Below are positions 33,227 to 45,562 of a stretch of DNA of 64,000 nt, piece after piece. Both the position numbers and the translations under genes were made by a program. The stretch is from the NCBI GenBank assembly GCA_964291295.2, contig OZ219754.1, positions 416,001 to 480,000 of the forward strand, read 5' to 3'. Under the pieces are notes generated by a model. It searched no databases, was not told where the DNA came from, and was given only the letters and a program-made list of their open reading frames with translations. Numbering within the stretch: the first letter of the stretch is position 1; each line of letters opens with the position of its first letter. The stretch is from an uncultured Candidatus Binatia bacterium. Lineage in GTDB: Bacteria; Desulfobacterota; Binatia; UBA9968; JAJDTQ01.

Positions 33227-33860
33227 GGGATAGTCTGAACAAGTTCTTTATGGTACACGGGGAAGCACAAAGGAAGGGGAGGAAAGGACCAAGCAGGCGA
33301 CGTATGGGGAGTTGGAGCGTGATGCGAAGAAACGAGTGACGCGGCAGGAAGTCTTTTCTGAGAAGATGGAAAAATTGATACCGTGGGAACGTCCGGAGAG
33401 TCGGATCAGGTAGTATTACCCGAAGGTGAGGCGATGACGGCGAGCGTATCCACTGCGGACGATGCTGCGAGTGCATTGCGTGCGGTTGTTTTATAATCTG
33501 AGCGATCCTGGGATGGAGGACATGCTCTACGGGTTGGAGTCGGTGCGGCGGTTTGTGGGATTGCGGTTGAGTGGCGCGTTGCAGACGAGACAAACGATAC
33601 TGAGATCTCAGCATTTGCCGGAAAGCCACGGACTGAGGAAAGAGTTGTTTGAAGAGATCAACGCGCACATGGCGTCGCAGGGCCACCGGCTCAAGCGGGC
33701 AACGATCGTGCATGAGGCCGCAGGCGCCTCCAGTTGTCACCCCAAGCCGACAACACGGCTCGATATCCATGACGACAACGCCCTCTCTCACTCTCCGCAC
33801 TCTCGTAACGTCGTCTTCAAACCAATCGTGCTTATCTTGACCCCTTGTTCAGGCATTCCC
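33227..33860 (+). mobile_element. Internally deleted, degraded IS5-family element
   Basis: Imperfect TIRs gggatagtctgaacaag / cttgttcaggcattccc (14/17); transposase remnant KKRVTRQEVF..IPW..*YYPK..*..YPLRTMLRVHC..YNLSDPGMEDMLY with internal stops and no C-terminal half. Confidence 0.82.
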
Positions 33861-33887
33861 TGGAACTTCCGTTCAAATGGATAAGCT

Positions 33888-36593
33888 TTGACGGACGGCC
33901 CAAGCGTGGAGTTTCTCTCGTTTTGGGGCAAGGCGCGCTCCACCGATGCAGACGGCGGTCCCGCTTGGCATCCCTTGGCATTTCATAGCCTTGATGCTGC
34001 GGCAGTCGGGGAAGCCTTACTCAGCGAGCATCGTGGTCTGACAAACCGCCTCTGCGGATTGTGGGGATTGACCGAACCCAAGACGGTCGCGCTTCTTCGT
34101 TTTCTGATCTGCCTGCACGATATCGGGAAGTTCGCCGGAAAATTCCAGGCCAAGGTGCCGGAGAGATTCCCGGCCTGCTTCGGCATCGAAGCGAGCAAGA
34201 TTTCGAACCGCTTCGATCACGGCTTGGGCGGTCTGCGTCTCCTTAAGAAACATCCGGATATATTCGGAGTACCTGATCGACGGCAGGCCGGGTTCTGGCT
34301 GCCTATCGTCTCCGCGGTTGCCGGACATCACGGTTCGCCGCCGGACCTGACCGCTGGTGGTGGGGAGATCAGGACCGACTTCAGGCACGCCGGGCTCGAG
34401 GCGGCGCGCGCATTCGCAGAGCGGGCGCGTGTCCTTCTCGGTCCGCCGGACCCGATGCCGCAAATGGACGACGACCGGGCGTCCCGCATCTCCTGGCTAC
34501 TGGCCGGACTGGCCGTGCTGTCCGACTGGATCGGGTCCAACGAGGACTGGTTTCCGTTCAGAAGCCCGAACGACTTCCCGAGCCTCGATTCCTATTGGGC
34601 CTGTGCCCGCAGGCAGGCGAAGGGCGCAATCCAGAAAGCCGGGATCGTTCCGGCGGCCGCGACCGGACGTGTGAGCTACGATGCGCTGGTCGGTTCTCCC
34701 GTTGCGCCCAGCCCGATGCAGGAATGGGCGCACAACGTTTCCTTGCCGGACGGCCCGGCCCTGTTCATCGTCGAGGACGAGACCGGCAGCGGCAAGACCG
34801 AGGCGGCGCTGATGCTTGCGCACCGGTTGATGGCGCTGAAACGGGCCGACGGCCTGTATATGGCGCTGCCGACCATGGCCACAGCCAACGCCATGTTCGA
34901 CCGGCTGGGCAGGGCGGTTCGCCACCTGTTCGCGCCGGATACCAAACCTTCGCTTGCGCTGGCCCATGGCGCGCGCAGCCTGCACCACGGATTCCGGGCG
35001 GCGCGCGACAATTGGGGACGAATCAAGGCGTCGTATGGGGATGGCGGCGAGGCGGATATCGCCGCATCGACCGCCTGTGCAGAATGGATCGCCGACGACC
35101 GGCGGCGCACATTCCTGGCCGACGCCGGCGCCGGCACGGTGGACCAGGCGCTACTGGCCGTGTTGCCGGCCCGTCACCAGTCGCTGCGGCTTCTGGGCTT
35201 GGCTCTTCGTGTGCTGATCATTGATGAGGTGCATGCCTACGACGCCTATATGCTCCGCGAGATCGAGACGCTGCTGACGTTCCAAGCGGCGCTCGGCGGT
35301 TCCGCGATCCTGCTGTCGGCGACACTGCCCGCCGGTCATCGGCAAAGCTTGGTGAACGCCTTCGCGAAGGGCATCGGAGAAGAACCGGTCCATATTGCGG
35401 AACATGTCTATCCGCTGGCTACGGTCTGCGGCCGCGGCCCACTGACGGAGACGCCGGTTCCGGCGCGTGCCGGACACAGCCGCAAGCTGCCGGTGCGTTT
35501 CTTGCGCAGTCCCGACGAGGCGTTGGGTGAAGTAGAATGCGCCATTCACTCAGGCCGGACGGCGCTTTACATTCGCAACACGGTCGATGACGCGCGCGAA
35601 GCCCATGCCGCCTTGACCGCACGCGGGATTCCAGCAGAGATATTCCATGCCCGGTTCGCGCTGACGGATCGCCTTTCAATCGAACACAGAACGGTCGAGA
35701 CCTTCGGCAAGAAAAGCATGGCAGACCAACGAGCCGGAAAGGTCCTGATAGCGACGCAGGTGGTAGAGCAATCGCTGGACCTGGATTTCGACATACTTGC
35801 GAGCGACTTGGCGCCGATCGACCTGCTGATCCAACGGGCCGGGCGGCTATGGCGACACGGATGGCGAAGGCGGGTAGGCGAACCGGAACTGCTCGTCGTC
35901 GCGCCGCCGGCCGCAGACGATCCGCCCGAAGACTGGTTCGAAAGGTTCCTGCCTCGCGCGGCGTACATCTATGGGGACCATGCCCGCCTGTGGCTGACCG
36001 TCCGGACGCTCGAACAGGCGGAAGCCATAGAAAGCCCGGGCAAGTTGCGGGCACTTATTGAGGCGGTTTACGGCCCCGAAGCGAAGGATAGGGTGCCGCC
36101 CAAGCTCTGCGACAAGTTGCTGGCGTTCGAGGGGAGGGAAGCTGCCGCCCGGAGTATGGGCCACATCAACACTTTGCGCGTGTCGTCGAGTTATATGCGC
36201 GATGCCGGCGTCTGGGACAGCGACATACGAACTCCGACCCGGCTGGTCGAGGACCCACGCGCCACGCTTCGGCTTGCGCTGATGAAAGATGGCCGACTCG
36301 AACCCTACGCGCTGGCGTACGCGCCGAAGGAGCCTTGGCGAGCTTGGCGGCTCAGCGAGGTGGAAGTTTCTCGACGGCATGTGGCGAGGGAGACTGTTCC
36401 ATCACGTCTTGCGGACGCGGCACGCAAAACCATGGCGAATTGGGGTCGATATGACGCAGGCAAGATACTCGTTGTGCTGGAGGAAGCGGGTGACGGTCGG
36501 CTGGTCGGCGCGGTTATGGGGCCAGATAGAGAGCGCAGGGTCTTATACAGCGTCAGCGATGGTCTCTCTTTCGCAGATGGCATCGAGACTTGA
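33888..36593 (+). CDS. cas3: CRISPR-associated HD nuclease/helicase Cas3
   Basis: HSLD, LHDIGK, GHHG, SDWIGS; ETGSGKTE, DEVH, SAT, HARF, QRAGRLWRH. Confidence 0.97.
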   Translation: MTDGPSVEFLSFWGKARSTDADGGPAWHPLAFHSLDAAAVGEALLSEHRGLTNRLCGLWGLTEPKTVALLRFLICLHDIGKFAGKFQAKVPERFPACFGIEASKISNRFDHGLGGLRLLKKHPDIFGVPDRRQAGFWLPIVSAVAGHHGSPPDLTAGGGEIRTDFRHAGLEAARAFAERARVLLGPPDPMPQMDDDRASRISWLLAGLAVLSDWIGSNEDWFPFRSPNDFPSLDSYWACARRQAKGAIQKAGIVPAAATGRVSYDALVGSPVAPSPMQEWAHNVSLPDGPALFIVEDETGSGKTEAALMLAHRLMALKRADGLYMALPTMATANAMFDRLGRAVRHLFAPDTKPSLALAHGARSLHHGFRAARDNWGRIKASYGDGGEADIAASTACAEWIADDRRRTFLADAGAGTVDQALLAVLPARHQSLRLLGLALRVLIIDEVHAYDAYMLREIETLLTFQAALGGSAILLSATLPAGHRQSLVNAFAKGIGEEPVHIAEHVYPLATVCGRGPLTETPVPARAGHSRKLPVRFLRSPDEALGEVECAIHSGRTALYIRNTVDDAREAHAALTARGIPAEIFHARFALTDRLSIEHRTVETFGKKSMADQRAGKVLIATQVVEQSLDLDFDILASDLAPIDLLIQRAGRLWRHGWRRRVGEPELLVVAPPAADDPPEDWFERFLPRAAYIYGDHARLWLTVRTLEQAEAIESPGKLRALIEAVYGPEAKDRVPPKLCDKLLAFEGREAAARSMGHINTLRVSSSYMRDAGVWDSDIRTPTRLVEDPRATLRLALMKDGRLEPYALAYAPKEPWRAWRLSEVEVSRRHVARETVPSRLADAARKTMANWGRYDAGKILVVLEEAGDGRLVGAVMGPDRERRVLYSVSDGLSFADGIET

Positions 36594-36617
36594 TCCCGGT
36601 CGATGCATCCCCATAAT
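36590..36617 (+). promoter_or_regulatory. Putative sigma70 promoter
   Basis: TTGATC-N16-CATAAT; predicted +1 near 36624. Confidence 0.5.
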
Positions 36618-36623
36618 TTTGAT

Positions 36624-36706
36624 ATGTTCCGCTATCGGACGGAGGATGATCCGGGTGCATGGCAGCCGCCGGACATCAAGGACTTGACGTTCTCCACGAG
36701 ATGGAA
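36624..36706 (+). ncRNA. Candidate crRNA-like mini-array (degenerate repeat-33 nt spacer-degenerate repeat)
   Basis: atgttccgctatcggacggaggatgatccg vs repeat gtgttccccgctcgcgcggggatgaaccg; 33 nt later acgttctccacgagatggaa (tcca/tgga stem). Confidence 0.4.
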
Positions 36707-36720
36707 CAAATAAAAGGATG

Positions 36721-36895
36721 CTAGGAGTCTGTGCCGCAGGACGCTTCGGGATGTGACCGGTGGGAGAGCATGACCAGTTTTTCCAAAATGCCAGAAAAGT
36801 TTAGCCTTGTTCCATTATTGGACATGAATTGGGCGACAAGTGGAACCTTGGTGGATTTCTGACCCATGAAAACTTTCTGCGGCGCAGGCTCCTAG
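36721..36895. mobile_element. 167-bp MITE-like element (36725-36891) with CTAG direct repeats
   Basis: ctag|gagtctgtgccgcag ... ctgcggcgcaggctc|ctag; 13/15 TIR; AT-rich non-coding interior. Confidence 0.7.
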
Positions 36896-37032
36896 GCATC
36901 CGCTAACGCACATGCGAATGGCATGGAAAGAGTTTGAAAAATGCTACCGAACATCCGAGAGACCTATCGCCGCGTTCACCACTTGCTATCGACGTTGCGA
37001 GTCCGAGTCGTGACGGGCATCGAGGTTCAGGT

Positions 37033-38712
37033 ATGCCACCGCCCGTGACGGCATCCTGCGACACACTGAACTTGATTCGTGCTCCCTGGCTACCGCTTCG
37101 GCGACGGAGTGGGCGGGTGGAACAATCTGCACCGTTTCGAATTGTCGAAGGGATCGGTGACGATCCGTTCGTCGCGTTCGCTTGGCCCCGGCCCGATTTC
37201 AACGGGGCCGCTCACGAGTTTCTAATCGGGCTGCTGGCCACAGCTGCCGCGCCGGAAAACGAGGACGAATGGGAGGACTGGTGGGTGGACCCACCCGCCC
37301 CCGAGGTTTTGCAGGCCAGGCTGGAATCCGTTGCGGACGCCTTCGATCTCGACGGTCCCGGTCCTCGCTTTCTTCAGGATCGCGACCCGCTCGACGGCAC
37401 AGAGCCATTGGAGGTCGCCGGGCTCCTGATCGACGCACCGGGGAAGCAGACCCTGAGCAAAAACGCGGACCTCTTCGTGAAGCGCGGCGGCGCACCGGTT
37501 TTAGGGCGAGCCGCAGCGGCGATGGCGTTGTTTACGCTCAACGCCTATGCGCCATCGGGCGGTGCCGGGCACCGCACCTCTCTTCGCGGCGGCGGGCCCC
37601 TGACGACGCTCGTAATTGCAGGCGACCATTTGTGGGGCCGGCTCTGGCCCAATGTCGAGACGGTCGGGTTGATCAAGGACCGATGGCCCCTTTCCTCGCC
37701 GCCGCCTGACGATCCTGCTGCGATGTTCCCTTGGCTCGCCCCGACTCGCACATCGAACCGGAAGGCCGGCGGACAGGCGACCACGCCTGCCGATACACAC
37801 CCGTTGCAAGTATATTGGGGCATGCCCCGGCGCATCCGTCTAGCGTTTGAGGAGTCGCAAGGTCGCCATTGTGCGCTTATGGGCGTCGAGGACGAGAGGG
37901 TCGTCGCTGCGTACCGGACCCGCAATTATGGCGTCGATTACTCCGAAGGCTTCGAGCATCCGCTGACGCCCTACTACACCAGGAAGGTCGGTGGCGCACG
38001 GCTCCCCGTGCATCCGCGGCCGGGTGGGCTCAGCTACCGGCGCTGGCCCGGTCTGGTGACACCAAGCGCCGATGGCTTGCGCCAACCGTCGCGCATCATC
38101 CGCCATGCAGAAAACGTGCGGTTCGCTATGGGTGGGGAACCCCGGTTCGCCGCCTTCGGTTACGACATGGACAACATGAAGGCGTGTGCGTGGATTGAAG
38201 GGGAATGGCCGCTGCACCTAGTTGCAAGCGATGAAGCGCGAAATGACTTGGAGGCCTTTATTCGACATGCGGTCAAGGGCGCTGAAACGATTTCGTGGTT
38301 GCTCGTCAGCGCGGTGAAATCGGCTCTCTACGACCGGCCGGCCGATGCAGCCGGCGATTACGGTTTCGTAGCGGAACGCTTCTTCAGAGAGACCGAGGCG
38401 ACGTTCTACAAAGCGTTCGCTGCCGCGAAAGAAGTGGTTCACAAGTGTATCGGATCGGACCCCGAGGACCCGACCCTAGGGGCGCGCCTTTCGTGGGCGA
38501 AGCACATGGAAGCGCCGACGCTCCGCCTGTTCGACGAATTCGCGCCCGGCGAGGCGCTAGAGAACCGGAGCATGGAACGCCATGTCCGGGCGCGCTTCTA
38601 TCTGAACCTTGCACTCGGCGGGCAGGGCAAGGACGGCAGGGCACTGTTCGGCCAACTCGGCATTCCGGCACCCGAACCCGCTGCCGCCGTCAACAGGCAG
38701 GAGGGCGCATGA
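37033..38712 (+). CDS. casA: Type I-E Cascade large subunit Cas8e/Cse1 (start 37033 or 36934)
   Basis: NLIRAPWLP, WPRPDFNGA, YAPSGGAGHRTSLRGGGP, YWGMPRRIRL, HPLTPYY. Confidence 0.94.
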   Translation: MPPPVTASCDTLNLIRAPWLPLRRRSGRVEQSAPFRIVEGIGDDPFVAFAWPRPDFNGAAHEFLIGLLATAAAPENEDEWEDWWVDPPAPEVLQARLESVADAFDLDGPGPRFLQDRDPLDGTEPLEVAGLLIDAPGKQTLSKNADLFVKRGGAPVLGRAAAAMALFTLNAYAPSGGAGHRTSLRGGGPLTTLVIAGDHLWGRLWPNVETVGLIKDRWPLSSPPPDDPAAMFPWLAPTRTSNRKAGGQATTPADTHPLQVYWGMPRRIRLAFEESQGRHCALMGVEDERVVAAYRTRNYGVDYSEGFEHPLTPYYTRKVGGARLPVHPRPGGLSYRRWPGLVTPSADGLRQPSRIIRHAENVRFAMGGEPRFAAFGYDMDNMKACAWIEGEWPLHLVASDEARNDLEAFIRHAVKGAETISWLLVSAVKSALYDRPADAAGDYGFVAERFFRETEATFYKAFAAAKEVVHKCIGSDPEDPTLGARLSWAKHMEAPTLRLFDEFAPGEALENRSMERHVRARFYLNLALGGQGKDGRALFGQLGIPAPEPAAAVNRQEGA

Positions 38713-39221
38713 TCGATTCGATCACAAAAGGGGCCGGATCCATCGCTGCCGCTTGGTGGCGGGAGTTGAACCCGGAGAACGGCGCGCAAACCGGTCCGCA
38801 GAAGGCGGCGCTCGCACATCTGCGCCGGGCGGGAACGCCACTCGAAGCCATAAGAGAAACAGCCACTTTGCGCCTGATACAGCGCTTGCCCAATTATGAC
38901 AACAAGGATCGTGTGGCGGCACTCGCGGGTATTCTCGCTTGGGTCGGGGAGAACAGCCCTCAGCCGGTGGCCCGGGCCGTTGGGCGCAGCACTCTTGACG
39001 ATGCAACAGCCGTCATGTCAGAAGGCCGCTTTCGCCGCCTTCTGCAAGTCGTTGAAGACGGAGAGCTCATGGACGCAATGCGCCGCCTCGTGCGCCAAGC
39101 CGGCCGGACAGTCAACGTGCGGGACCTGTCCGATTCCATTCTCTACTGGGGAGACAGGGTCAGGAAACGCTGGATCTTCGACTATTACGGCGTGGGCCGC
39201 GCCGCACCGTCCGACTCTTAA
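38709..39221 (+). CDS. casB: Type I-E small subunit Cse2/Cas11
   Basis: WWREL..LAHLRRA, MSEGRFRRLL, RKRWIFDYY; ATGA overlap. Confidence 0.93.
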   Translation: MIDSITKGAGSIAAAWWRELNPENGAQTGPQKAALAHLRRAGTPLEAIRETATLRLIQRLPNYDNKDRVAALAGILAWVGENSPQPVARAVGRSTLDDATAVMSEGRFRRLLQVVEDGELMDAMRRLVRQAGRTVNVRDLSDSILYWGDRVRKRWIFDYYGVGRAAPSDS

Positions 39222-40304: not shown

Positions 40305-41069
40305 ATGCGGTTCCTGCTCTTCACGCTCTACGCGCCGATGTGTTCCTTGGGCGAGATTGCCGTCGGGGAGCGGCGCATGGGCTGGTCGCGGCCGGGGCGG
40401 TCCGCCGTCCTCGGGCTGGTTGCCGCCGCGCTGGGGATCAGACGGAGCGACGATGATGCCCATCGTGCGCTGGAACAGGAGCTGCACTACGCCGTCAGAA
40501 CGGACGCGGCCGGCCGCCCCTTCATCGACTACCATACAGCACAGACTCCCGCCGCGCGGCGGGGCCGGAGCTTCGAGACGCGTCGTGAGGAACTGGAGGC
40601 CGAGCGGCTCAACACCGTGCTTTCCAGCCGGGAATGGCGTTCGGATGCCTGTTTCACGGCCGCACTCTGGTTGCGCTCCAACGGCGCGGTCGATCTGGAT
40701 GAGATCGCCGCAGCGCTGCGCCAGCCCCGTTTCACACTCTTTCTGGGCCGTAGATCGGCTCCGCTCGGATTGCCCCTCGAACCGGAAATCGTCGAAGCCG
40801 CCAATTTGATGGACGCCCTCACGCTTCGGTGCCCGGCAGCTACCGACGAAGACGACGGCAAAAGCCCCGGCGCGGTGGAAGCATGGGCGTTGGAACGGCT
40901 TCGTCGCGGCTTGCCCGCCGGTCGGGAGATCGCCTTCGATGCCGATGCCCCGGGAGCGCCGGCGGGCGGTTTCCTCGAACGCCGGCGCGACGGCGTCGGG
41001 AGCCGCACGCGATGGCAGTTTCAAGACCGGGAAGAGCGGGTGGTGATCGACCGGGGAGACGGTAAGTGA
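40305..41069 (+). CDS. cas5: Type I-E Cas5e
   Basis: PGRSAVLGLVAAALGIRR, DYHTAQ, LFLGRRS.P. Confidence 0.96.
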   Translation: MRFLLFTLYAPMCSLGEIAVGERRMGWSRPGRSAVLGLVAAALGIRRSDDDAHRALEQELHYAVRTDAAGRPFIDYHTAQTPAARRGRSFETRREELEAERLNTVLSSREWRSDACFTAALWLRSNGAVDLDEIAAALRQPRFTLFLGRRSAPLGLPLEPEIVEAANLMDALTLRCPAATDEDDGKSPGAVEAWALERLRRGLPAGREIAFDADAPGAPAGGFLERRRDGVGSRTRWQFQDREERVVIDRGDGK

Positions 41070-41770
41070 CTGGCTCATACTGGCTGTCTCGTGTCCGGCT
41101 CGGAAGCGCTGCGTCCGTCAAGGCCATCATGCCCCTGCTGCAACAGAACGCCGGTCCCGGCAGCCACGGTTCCGTCGATGTGGACCGGCGCCTAGTCTGG
41201 TCCTTGTTTGCAGACAGGCCGGACCGCCGCCGCGATTTTCTCTGGCGGCGGATGGATGACGGCGCCTTTCTCGTGCTTTCGGCGCGGACTCCTGAAGACC
41301 GTCACGGCTTGTTCGATATCGACGAACCCAAAGCCTTTGTCCCCGTCCTGGTGCCAGGCGACCGGCTGCGTTTCTCGCTGCGGGCCAACCCGACGTTCCG
41401 CAAGGCAAAGAAGCCGGGGCAGCGTCATGCGCCCCGGCACGATGTCGTGATGGGTGCGCTTCACCCACTGCCGGAAGGTTCGCGCACCGAACGCCGCATG
41501 ACCGCCATCCGGGGAAAGGGCTTCGAATGGCTCGCCAGGCAGGGTTGCAAGGCCGGTTTCGAGATACGGGAGGAGGAATTGCTGTGCGAGGGTTATCGCC
41601 AGCACCGCATCGACCGTGGCGACGTCAAAGGCGTCTTGTCGTTCACCTCCCTTGATTTCGAAGGCATTCTGGAGATCCGGAATCCGGACTTGCTGCCGCC
41701 TGCCATCGCGCGCGGATTCGGCCCTGCCAAAGCCTTCGGTTGCGGCCTCATGCTGATCCGGAGGCTCTGA
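41066..41770 (+). CDS. cas6e: Type I-E Cas6e/Cse3 endoribonuclease
   Basis: LRFSLRANPT, C-terminal G-loop GFGPAKAFGCGLMLI. Confidence 0.96.
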   Translation: MTGSYWLSRVRLGSAASVKAIMPLLQQNAGPGSHGSVDVDRRLVWSLFADRPDRRRDFLWRRMDDGAFLVLSARTPEDRHGLFDIDEPKAFVPVLVPGDRLRFSLRANPTFRKAKKPGQRHAPRHDVVMGALHPLPEGSRTERRMTAIRGKGFEWLARQGCKAGFEIREEELLCEGYRQHRIDRGDVKGVLSFTSLDFEGILEIRNPDLLPPAIARGFGPAKAFGCGLMLIRRL

Positions 41771-43091: not shown

Positions 43092-44363
43092 GTGTTCCCC
43101 GCTCGCGCGGGGATGAACCAGCAGCTGGGCTCGTTCAGCGTCGGAGGTCGACCGTGTTCCCCGCTCGCGCGGGGATGAACCCGTAGGTGGATGCTGAGCC
43201 GGAATGCCTGGCTGGTGTTCCCCGCTCGCGCGGGGATGAACCGAAGCCCTGGCCACGGAGCTCCACCGGCACCGCGTGTTCCCCGCTCGCGCGGGGATGA
43301 ACCGGCGGTGGACCGTTACCACCTGGAGGACTCCGACGTGTTCCCCGCTCGCGCGGGGATGAACCGTATACAGTGGCCGATTTTTGGCCTGATTTGGCCT
43401 GTGTTCCCCGCTCGCGCGGGGATGAACCGCATCGCGTGCTCGAAGCGCTCGCTCGTCCATCGTGTTCCCCGCTCGCGCGGGGATGAACCGCGCGCCGAAC
43501 TGGACGGATGGCTGGAGCAGCACAGTGTTCCCCGCTCGCGCGGGGATGAACCGACGTAGTCCAATCTGCCGCCTGCAATGGCGCTGTGTTCCCCGCTCGC
43601 GCGGGGATGAACCGGATTGCCGGGCGGCCGATGGCCGCGTGCTCCCGTGTTCCCCGCTCGCGCGGGGATGAACCATAATGAGGGCCAGGTGAAGTTGATT
43701 CACGAATGGTGTTCCCCGCTCGCGCGGGGATGAACCGGTCCGCCGGATCGGTGCCGTCCGGCCTATCGAGGTGTTCCCCGCTCGCGCGGGGATGAACCGT
43801 GTGAGTCCGTCCATGAAGTCCGGCCCATCGAGTGTTCCCCGCTCGCGCGGGGATGAACCGGTGTGTCGACTGTAGTCACGAGCGGCGTGTGGGTGTTCCC
43901 CGCTCGCGCGGGGATGAACCGGTCTGGCGAGTGATCCGCCCCGGCACGAGGGCGTGTTCCCCGCTCGCGCGGGGATGAACCGAAATCCGGCGGCCATCCG
44001 CCGACTTCCACGACGTGTTCCCCGCTCGCGCGGGGATGAACCGTAAATAGTACCGGGGTCCATTTTTTGATGAATAGTGTTCCCCGCTCGCGCGGGGATG
44101 AACCCAGGATTCGATGAATCGCCGTCGACCCGTATCGAGTGTTCCCCGCTCGCGCGGGGATGAACCGGCGTCAGTCGTGAGGCGGACCGGGTCCACCGCC
44201 GTGTTCCCCGCTCGCGCGGGGATGAACCGCTATCCCTGCCACTTGAGCAACCGGCGGACCAGTGTTCCCCGCTCGCGCGGGGATGAACCGTGGGGGGCTA
44301 GTAGCGCGGCATGGCGCCGCCGGTGTTCCCCGCTCGCGCGGGGATGAACCGGAGACGGTGATA

Positions 44364-45492
44364 TACATGGCGACTTAAGTAATGCCGCATAGAGGTTGCA
44401 ATATGACATTCGGTTTTCGCCACTGGGCGAAGCAGGATTCGACGGCGGAGAGCAACTCGTCGAGACTGCTGAAGTAGAGGTTGTGGGTGGCGAGGCGCCG
44501 GGTGAGTTTCCAGACCCGTTCGATAGGAGCGAGTTGCGGGCTGTAGGGCGGTAGGAGCAACAATTCCAGATGCACCCGATGGGTGTCGAGCAGAGGTTTG
44601 AGAAGTTTGGCGTGGTGGTAGCGCGCATTGTCGAGAACCACAACCATCTTTTTTGTTGCGCGAACGGCGGCGTAGCAGGCTCTTCAGGAAGGTCTCGAAG
44701 GTGACCGCATTGAACACCGGCGAAAAAGCGTGGACGAACTTGCCGCTGTGCAAACTCACCGCGCCGAAGCAGGCGGCGGATTGGCGTGTCGGCGCGTGAC
44801 GGGCCACCGGGTCCTTGTCCTCGGGCGGCACCCATACGCGGCAGCGGGTGCCGTGGCGCTGAAAGTGGCATTCGTCTTGGCTCCACAGTTCAAGATCTCG
44901 GCGTTTCGCCAAGCGACGCAGTTTTTTAAACCCCTCCACGCCCAGCGTGTCCTCCAGCGCCAATTGGGGTCGTGGCTTCCGGAGACGAAATCCCATCTGC
45001 CGTAATAGCCGCTGGCACTGTCGCACACCCAATTCTACCCGGTAACGACGCCGCAAGTGTTCCGCCACCCGCTTGCCATCCCACAGATGTCCCACCAGAC
45101 CGAAATCGTCCGGCCGGCGGCGCAGGTCGCCTTCCAGCGAAGACCACTGATCCGATGTGAGCGACCGCGGACGACCGCTCCGCTCCCCCTCGCGCAGCCC
45201 ATCAAAGCCCCGCTGCTCGAACCTGCGCACCCAGCGCTGCACCGTGCGCGGATCCTCATCGAACAACCGCGCCACCTGCCGGCAACTCTGACCAACTGCC
45301 ACCAACAACAAGCCATGAAGCCGATGGTCGTACCGCGATTCCTCCGACCGTTGGATTTCCTGTTGTATCGCCATGCGCATCACCTCCGCCTCCGCTATCT
45401 CAAGCCTTCTCATGCCGCATCCATCCTCTCTTTCCTATTAATTACTAATTACTTCCTACGTAATTATGCGGCATTACTTAAGTCACCATGTA
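44364..45492 (-). mobile_element. IS630-family insertion sequence (1129 bp)
   Basis: 28-bp TIRs tacatgg(c/t)gacttaagtaatgccgcata with 1 mismatch; TA duplication at 44362-63 and 45493-94. Confidence 0.96.
44375..45413 (-). pseudogene. IS630 DDE transposase split by a frameshift at an A6 run
   Basis: HTH plus WSQDECHF in one frame; VVLDNARYH and LPPYSPQLAPIERVW in another; junction at aacAAAAAAgatg near 44650. Confidence 0.88.
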
Positions 45493-45562
45493 TAGTAGCA
45501 GTCGTATCGTCCTTGTGTTCCCCGCTCGCGCGGGGATAAACTGAACCGCTTCCTGCACATCA

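Follow-up and report, generated by a model that had tools for sequence, protein, structure and literature searches.

The DNA analyzed here is a window of 64,000 nucleotides (nt) from an uncultured Candidatus Binatia bacterium (source genome G000, contig C1; the window corresponds to G000:C1:416001-480000). Its + strand carries a complete type I-E CRISPR-Cas locus, as recognized with Pfam and NCBIfam. Between cas3 and cas8e lies a short element (36590-36716; positions are those of the window unless a contig or another locus is named) that is probably a CreR-type regulatory mini-CRISPR of type I-E, decayed and orphaned. Sequence comparison gives good support to its descent from a CreR-type mini-array, and present activity is doubtful; an orphaned CreR, possibly inactive, is the most likely description. 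The anatomy of the element, its positional homology, the co-variation of guide and target in relatives, and a miniature inverted-repeat transposable element (MITE) together with its empty site were observed directly. As such, the element is one more example of a kind already known for type I-E systems.

Regulators of this kind have been described before. In the type I-E locus of Salmonella enterica, CreR is made from a degenerate mini-CRISPR lying between cas3 and casA and represses the casA promoter via a 15-nt match beside an AAG (Liu et al., bioRxiv 10.1101/2023.03.10.532045). CreTA, from the type I-B system of Haloarcula hispanica, comprises the antitoxin RNA CreA and the toxin CreT (Liu et al., bioRxiv 10.1101/2023.03.10.532045). 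A broader survey reports mini-arrays in ~19% of the I-E loci of bacteria; they usually lie between cas3 and cas8, with a target downstream beside AAG and with mismatches tolerated at every sixth position (Shmakov et al., bioRxiv 10.1101/2023.03.03.530964, PMC10120712). An earlier note on the present DNA had proposed a regulator of the CreA/CreR type, resembling a CRISPR RNA (crRNA), in the cas3-cas8e intergenic region (36594-37032, 439 nt), and this proposal is supported by the layout found in a genome of the same genus and by the co-variation of guide and site in 20 further loci. The parts of the element are as follows:

36590-36617, + strand: promoter-like site TTGATC-N16-CATAAT, with a predicted start near 36624; the only sigma-70-like site in 36400-37150
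36624-36653, + strand: psiR1, degenerate first repeat; 22/29 repeat positions match, with one 1-nt insertion
36654-36686, + strand: psiS, pseudo-spacer (guide) of 33 nt
36687-36716, + strand: psiR2, strongly decayed second repeat; 12/29 to the array repeat

The promoter-like site for which a start near 36624 had been predicted is present, and the TGA stop codon of cas3 (36591-36593) falls within its -35 hexamer. The last 8 nt of psiR1 (36646-36653) form the presumed 5' handle ATGATCCG, which agrees with ATGAACCG at 7/8 positions. The 33-nt spacer announced after the first repeat is likewise found, and its length lies within the range of the array spacers (32-34 nt, corresponding to a spacing of 61-63 nt). 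Outside the array, the repeat-match score of psiR1 is reached at 31 positions (~25 loci) in 7.3 Mb on both strands; a match of this grade is expected ~0.001 times in the 257 nt of intergenic DNA that do not belong to the MITE, on one strand. The pattern TGTTCC-N13-17-handle (at most one mismatch), which was designed after the candidate had been seen, occurs 25 times on contig C1, with four occurrences outside the array, the candidate included. One further repeat-like site, C1:3322362, falls within coding-like DNA and was set aside as a chance match.

Comparison with related loci carries the argument beyond the single copy. A close Cas8e is encoded in 4 of the 123 genomes of the order, including the source genome. 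In G011 and G026, cas3 and cas8e abut, leaving no room for an element. The same-genus genome G005, with a Cas8e 59% identical, repeats the layout after its cas3 stop: TTGACT lies over the stop codon and is followed by N16, TACATT, 7 nt, a psiR1 with ATGAACCG unchanged as its terminal handle, a psiS of 33 nt, and a psiR2 that forms a good hairpin (z -3.6). Guides were compared with candidate sites at positions 1-5, 7-11, and 13-17, omitting every sixth base, which is unpaired in type I-E; on this scale, the psiS of G005 scores 14/15 against a site beside AAG that lies 58 nt downstream.

A four-sequence Cas8e alignment was scanned against species-representative genomes, yielding 80 loci. Among the 78 with at least 400 nt of upstream sequence, 21 combine a handle (at most one mismatch) with a partial match further downstream that scores 11/15 or more. 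The protospacer-adjacent motif (PAM) is AAG in 16 of these loci, AAA in two, and ATG, ATA, and TCC in one each; the locus with TCC (L033) looks like a false positive, leaving 20 credible loci. Measured from the first base of psiS, the distance to the match is 47-79 nt in 17 of these, 115-116 nt in two, and 252 nt in one. The guides differ from locus to locus, and the downstream sites change along with them: cognate guide/site pairs score 11-15, and the 380 non-cognate pairs average 8.98 (standard deviation 0.94, maximum 12), with 8/380 reaching 12, mostly between related loci. With a strict promoter-like pattern, a promoter-like site was also located at -53 to -66 from the handle in L042 (the G005 locus), L046, L047, and L087. 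A DNA search across the class (401 genomes) returned no further relative of the mini-array, and a scan of metagenome contigs with the 18-nt core of psiR2 gave 49 loci with only 21-24-nt chance matches and no true relative.

In the source genome, the site corresponding to these targets is interrupted by the MITE, and its parts are arranged as follows:

36714-36716, + strand: AAG PAM of the former target
36717-36724, + strand: protospacer positions 1-8, left of the split; left CTAG copy at 36721-36724
36725-36895, no strand assigned: MITE plus one copy of the CTAG duplication, 171 nt; multi-copy, inside the protospacer
36896-36920, + strand: protospacer positions 9-33, right of the split, found on removal of the MITE

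The stretch at ~36721-36897 recurs at least nine more times in the same genome with 82-89% identity, and in an alignment of 10 MITE copies the inverted ends and the flanking CTAG are common to the copies; CTAG is taken as the target-site duplication of the MITE. Contigs of related strains were obtained from public sequencing runs. One of them, from a strain ~91% identical, joins across the place of the MITE and skips exactly 171 nt. Three more related contigs follow the window up to 36705 and rejoin it at 36952 or 36970, with other letters between.

As it stands, the locus offers no PAM-flanked psiS target; scans of the window and of the locus agree on this with the earlier note, and the best AAG site scores 8/15. 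Once the MITE (36725-36895) is removed in silico, an AAG-flanked protospacer appears at 36717, matching psiS at 12/15 scored positions, at 8/10 seed positions, and at 17/33 positions overall, at an offset of 63 nt from the start of psiS. At the present MITE junction the score is 8/15 and the seed 6/10, with the PAM and protospacer positions 1-8 remaining on the left. Shuffled guides reached 12/15 in the same 90-nt stretch in 1/5000 cases with AAG and in 8/5000 with any PAM. Nine other positions of the window, both strands considered, reach 12/15, none of them with AAG. Furthermore, of 3804 handle-like sites in the rest of the chromosome, 0 are followed at +40 to +130 by a site beside AAG that matches at 12 or more positions; the background maximum is 11, at one site. 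The guess that the MITE upstream of cas8e might have disrupted the target is supported, in that removing it restores an AAG-flanked partial protospacer at the distance typical of the family.

The flanks of the MITE (36715-36724 and 36896-36901) are also mutually reverse-complementary. Because GGATGC on the left and GCATCC on the right are reverse complements, the uninterrupted target site would be a near-perfect palindrome centered on the CTAG insertion point.

Of the related loci, L052 is the closest, its Cas8e being 85% identical over residues 1-348. This locus is degraded and is without cas3, psiR1, and the 5' half of psiS; it retains the 3' end of psiS and psiR2, with 83% identity over 48 nt. 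In L052, an AAG with its adjoining site lies 29 nt from the psiR2 core, equal to the distance in the source genome, and the psiS of the source genome scores 11/15 against the L052 site. The related contigs carry two guide variants, 36660 T>G (position 7) and 36667 C>T (position 14), and the variant letters at both positions exactly equal those of the L052 target site; combined, the two variants would give 13/15 against that site, with seed positions 1-9 unbroken. Position 14 is C both in the source-genome guide and in the restored site, i.e., a change on both sides.

These comparisons suggest how the ancestral element may have functioned, with transcription, processing, loading, repression, and the loss of repression all inferred from sequence. 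A promoter overlapping the cas3 stop codon would have driven a psiR1-psiS-psiR2 transcript, which Cas6e would have cut, the crRNA-like product then being taken up by Cascade. The 5' part of this product would have paired incompletely with the AAG-flanked site ~60 nt downstream, after psiR2 and before cas8e; on account of this incomplete pairing, Cascade would be expected to bind the site without recruiting Cas3 and to restrain transcription of its own operon. In the source genome, the 171-nt MITE inserted at CTAG within that protospacer, after position 8. Neither the locus nor the main chromosome now offers the guide a credible target, so the autorepression loop is most likely broken; the RNA may still be made. 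A more tentative suggestion, which we would regard as possible and no better than doubtful, is that the MITE insertion freed Cascade expression from self-repression (or rewired it) and left the orphan guide behind. If true, a mobile element would have naturally reset the expression level of an immune system that polices mobile elements, and the sister strain without the MITE, from the same sample set, would be a ready-made control.

Several observations weigh against interpreting the element as a decayed CreR-type mini-array. At only 12/29 positions is psiR2 identical to the array repeat, its hairpin is a weak one of 4 bp (36693-36696 with 36702-36705, -2.7 kcal/mol), and the stability of the psiR1 and psiR2 hairpins does not exceed that of shuffles (z -0.5 and -0.07, respectively). 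The minimum free energy (MFE) fold of psiR1 is not a Cas6e-type stem, and the ttccg/cggag stem would stop 1 nt before the handle. A profile hidden Markov model (HMM) built from 20 family members (nhmmer, searched across genome and window) and a covariance model, R1, built from 20 family members and run with filters off both left 36590-36716 unmatched at E up to 10; the same two models do pick up array units and orphan repeats. In 36400-37150, the single promoter-like site compares with a mean of 0.6 sites in shuffles and, taken alone, is not above chance. The restored target site keeps seed mismatches at positions 2 and 7, and on the related contig the joint runs from 36732 to 36904, 8 nt to the right of the inferred borders, with the same length. 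The scoring scheme was fixed after the first example (G005), the related loci are kin and not independent, and the scan for other targets covered contig C1 only, with C2 and C3 left out.

Every feature described in the earlier note is nevertheless present at the coordinates given there. Of the degenerate repeat placed at 36624, the 22/29 match and the 7/8 handle stand, and the proposed ttccg/cggag stem is a possible pairing, though the MFE structure is a different one. The second repeat-like hairpin lies at the right distance, 33 nt further on, with low sequence identity and a stem no more stable than shuffles, and its segment is conserved in L052. In the chance controls, matches of the psiR1 grade are rare at such a location, and the hairpins are no better than those of shuffled sequences.

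The intact promoter-like site and handle raise the question of whether CreR still works here, its RNA being made, loaded, and used to repress the junction site, a site in or beyond the MITE, or a distant gene. The PAM and protospacer positions 1-8 persist at the left junction, the first 13 nt of the guide are identical to a stretch of the bacterium's own Iso_dh-family gene (C1:3557175-3557187, within the gene region G000:C1:3557103-3557384 on the - strand), and distant targets, according to the survey, cannot be excluded (Shmakov et al., bioRxiv 10.1101/2023.03.03.530964). However, the low score of the present junction speaks against repression there, and the genome-wide search for a seed and PAM, proposed as a way to another psiS target, brought up nothing above chance on contig C1: no site combines a perfect seed with AAG, ATG, AGG, or GAG, and the 16 sites with at least 12/15 and one of these PAMs (of 490 with at least 12/15 and any PAM) are no more than chance would give, 11 of the 16 lying in coding-like DNA. 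At the Iso_dh site, GCC takes the place of the PAM, and exact 13-mer matches occur genome-wide about once per guide 13-mer, which places this match at chance level. A CreR that still represses a target in this bacterium is thus unlikely.

A second likeness to Iso_dh concerns a longer part of the guide, as psiS, over 36654-36681, resembles the VHGSAPDI-coding stretch of Iso_dh-family genes and matches Iso_dh genes of another family at 26/27 positions with one gap in six genomes (including L005 1501-1528 and L006 1501-1528). This likeness was judged a probable coincidence in view of the GC-rich composition, the ~585 genomes searched, and the GCC at the PAM position, and also because the guides of related strains differ at positions 7 and 14. 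Both likenesses are probably coincidental, though unexplained.

Resemblance by chance, with ordinary intergenic DNA or the 3' untranslated region of cas3 taken for a CRISPR derivative, would account for the failure of the family HMM and covariance model to match the element, for hairpins no better than shuffles, and for the dozens of equally repeat-like sites in this GC-rich genome. It is nonetheless quite improbable: the handle, the spacing, and a match beside AAG at the offset usual for the family coincide in 0/3804 background handle-like sites, the layout is common to G005, and both psiR2 and the PAM site have orthologues in L052. The element as a whole also folds well, which could point to a structured RNA acting through a long-range fold, for example as a stabilizer of the cas3 3' end or as an attenuator before cas8e, and not through a guide. 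The 93-nt segment 36624-36716 reaches -32.7 kcal/mol (z -2.83; 0/200 shuffles as good) by pairing psiR1, through its 5' arm, with the 3' arm of psiR2. Such a fold is, however, expected of any mini-array, because two copies of a palindromic repeat pair by construction; in addition, no T-run terminator is predicted, and the PAM-flanked, co-varying sites in relatives would be left unexplained. We would be very surprised indeed if this explanation proved correct.

Taken as a decayed CreR-type mini-array, the element can be set beside the known systems. In common with Salmonella CreR, it is a degenerate two-repeat mini-CRISPR in the intergenic region between cas3 and casA/cas8e, the handle of psiR1 is its best-kept part, its guide is a partial fit to a site beside AAG that lies upstream of the Cascade operon, and a toxin gene is not apparent (Liu et al., bioRxiv 10.1101/2023.03.10.532045). 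Unlike Salmonella CreR, its target is interrupted by a MITE, its repeats are more decayed (handle 7/8, weak stems), and it is known from sequence alone; moreover, the restored match covers 12/15 scored positions with two seed mismatches, whereas that of Salmonella CreR comprises 15 consecutive nt. With CreTA of Haloarcula hispanica it shares the principle that a degenerate mini-CRISPR guide retasks Cascade for repression by partial complementarity, although the intergenic region of the source genome contains no toxin candidate; seven relatives have an open reading frame (ORF) of 60-75 aa there. The mini-arrays of the survey resemble the element in location, in having two units of which the upstream one is better kept, in the AAG target downstream, and in the tolerance of mismatches at the sixth position, and the 20-21/78 related loci found here compare with ~19% of bacterial I-E loci there (Shmakov et al., bioRxiv 10.1101/2023.03.03.530964). 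In contrast to the entries of that survey, for which a detectable target was required, the source-genome copy would fail, its target being split. In the literature on CreR and crRNA-like regulators that was searched for this combination, no mention of a MITE or insertion sequence was found.

CreR mini-arrays are an established way to match the production of Cascade to need, and one more example adds little in itself. The present copy does indicate that surveys relying on a match between guide and target undercount decayed or disrupted copies, as target-based detection misses the source-genome copy because a transposable element splits the target. A strain with the MITE and a relative without it also form a natural experiment on how Cas levels, autoimmunity cost, and defense respond when CreR repression is lost. 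Furthermore, approximately a quarter of the Cas8e clade, spread over very different bacterial lineages, has an element with co-varying guide and site, which supports the generality of the mechanism.

Two side observations concern the related loci. In L032, L078, L087, L092, and L096, the TGA stop codon of cas3 forms part of the psiR1 handle ATGAACCG, which begins within the cas3 ORF, 4 nt ahead of its end, so that the mini-array overlaps cas3. The seven ORFs of 60-75 aa lie between the CreR target and cas8e, ending at or near the cas8e start, with the following positions in their loci:

L032: 2260-2487, small ORF
L042: 2275-2490, small ORF
L046: 2281-2472, small ORF
L047: 2290-2481, small ORF
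L053: 2310-2501, small ORF
L054: 2307-2489, small ORF
L055: 2274-2483, small ORF

Mostly preceded by a Shine-Dalgarno-like sequence, these ORFs are only 14-22% alike, with a loosely common acidic or valine-rich C-terminal stretch, and a Pfam search of the seven gave no match. Judging from its sequence and position, the small ORF may be a cargo gene controlled by CreR. The source genome is without it, as no small ORF preceded by a Shine-Dalgarno sequence was seen on reading 36594-37032.

The remaining features of the type I-E locus, in which an Rfam search of the window gave no family match, are as follows:

33888-36593, + strand: cas3 (HD nuclease and helicase); Pfam Cas3_HD and Cas3-like_C_2, NCBIfam Cas3
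37033-38712, + strand: cas8e (cse1); GAGG ahead of the start, N-terminus aligning with three homologues
38712-39221, + strand: cse2, followed by cas7, cas5, cas6e (41066-41770), cas1, and cas2
43092-44351, + strand: CRISPR array, 21 repeats of GTGTTCCCCGCTCGCGCGGGGATGAACCG

Immediately upstream of cas3 lies a fragment of an IS5-type transposase (DUF772, E 2.9e-5; 33462-33884, + strand), in agreement with the IS5 remnant reported there before. The native promoter region of cas3 may thus have been replaced, with the IS5-type fragment now upstream.

Inside the CRISPR array, an IS630-like transposase gene (helix-turn-helix and DDE_3; 44298-45413, - strand) cuts off the final, slightly degenerate repeat (45515-45543, two mismatches) from the other 21. 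A hairpin motif, GGATTCCCGC...GCGGGAATGAC, resembles the stem of the CRISPR repeat and occurs at G000:C1 257491 (+), 337440 (-), 919862 (-), and 943800 (-); it may be a dispersed repeat, and it raises the chance of fortuitous repeat matches. Finally, a lone, nearly complete CRISPR repeat with three mismatches is present ~260 kb from the cas locus, at G000:C1:717124-717152 (-). It sits just past an apparent gene end and may be what is left of a lost array, or else a repeat unit that stands alone.

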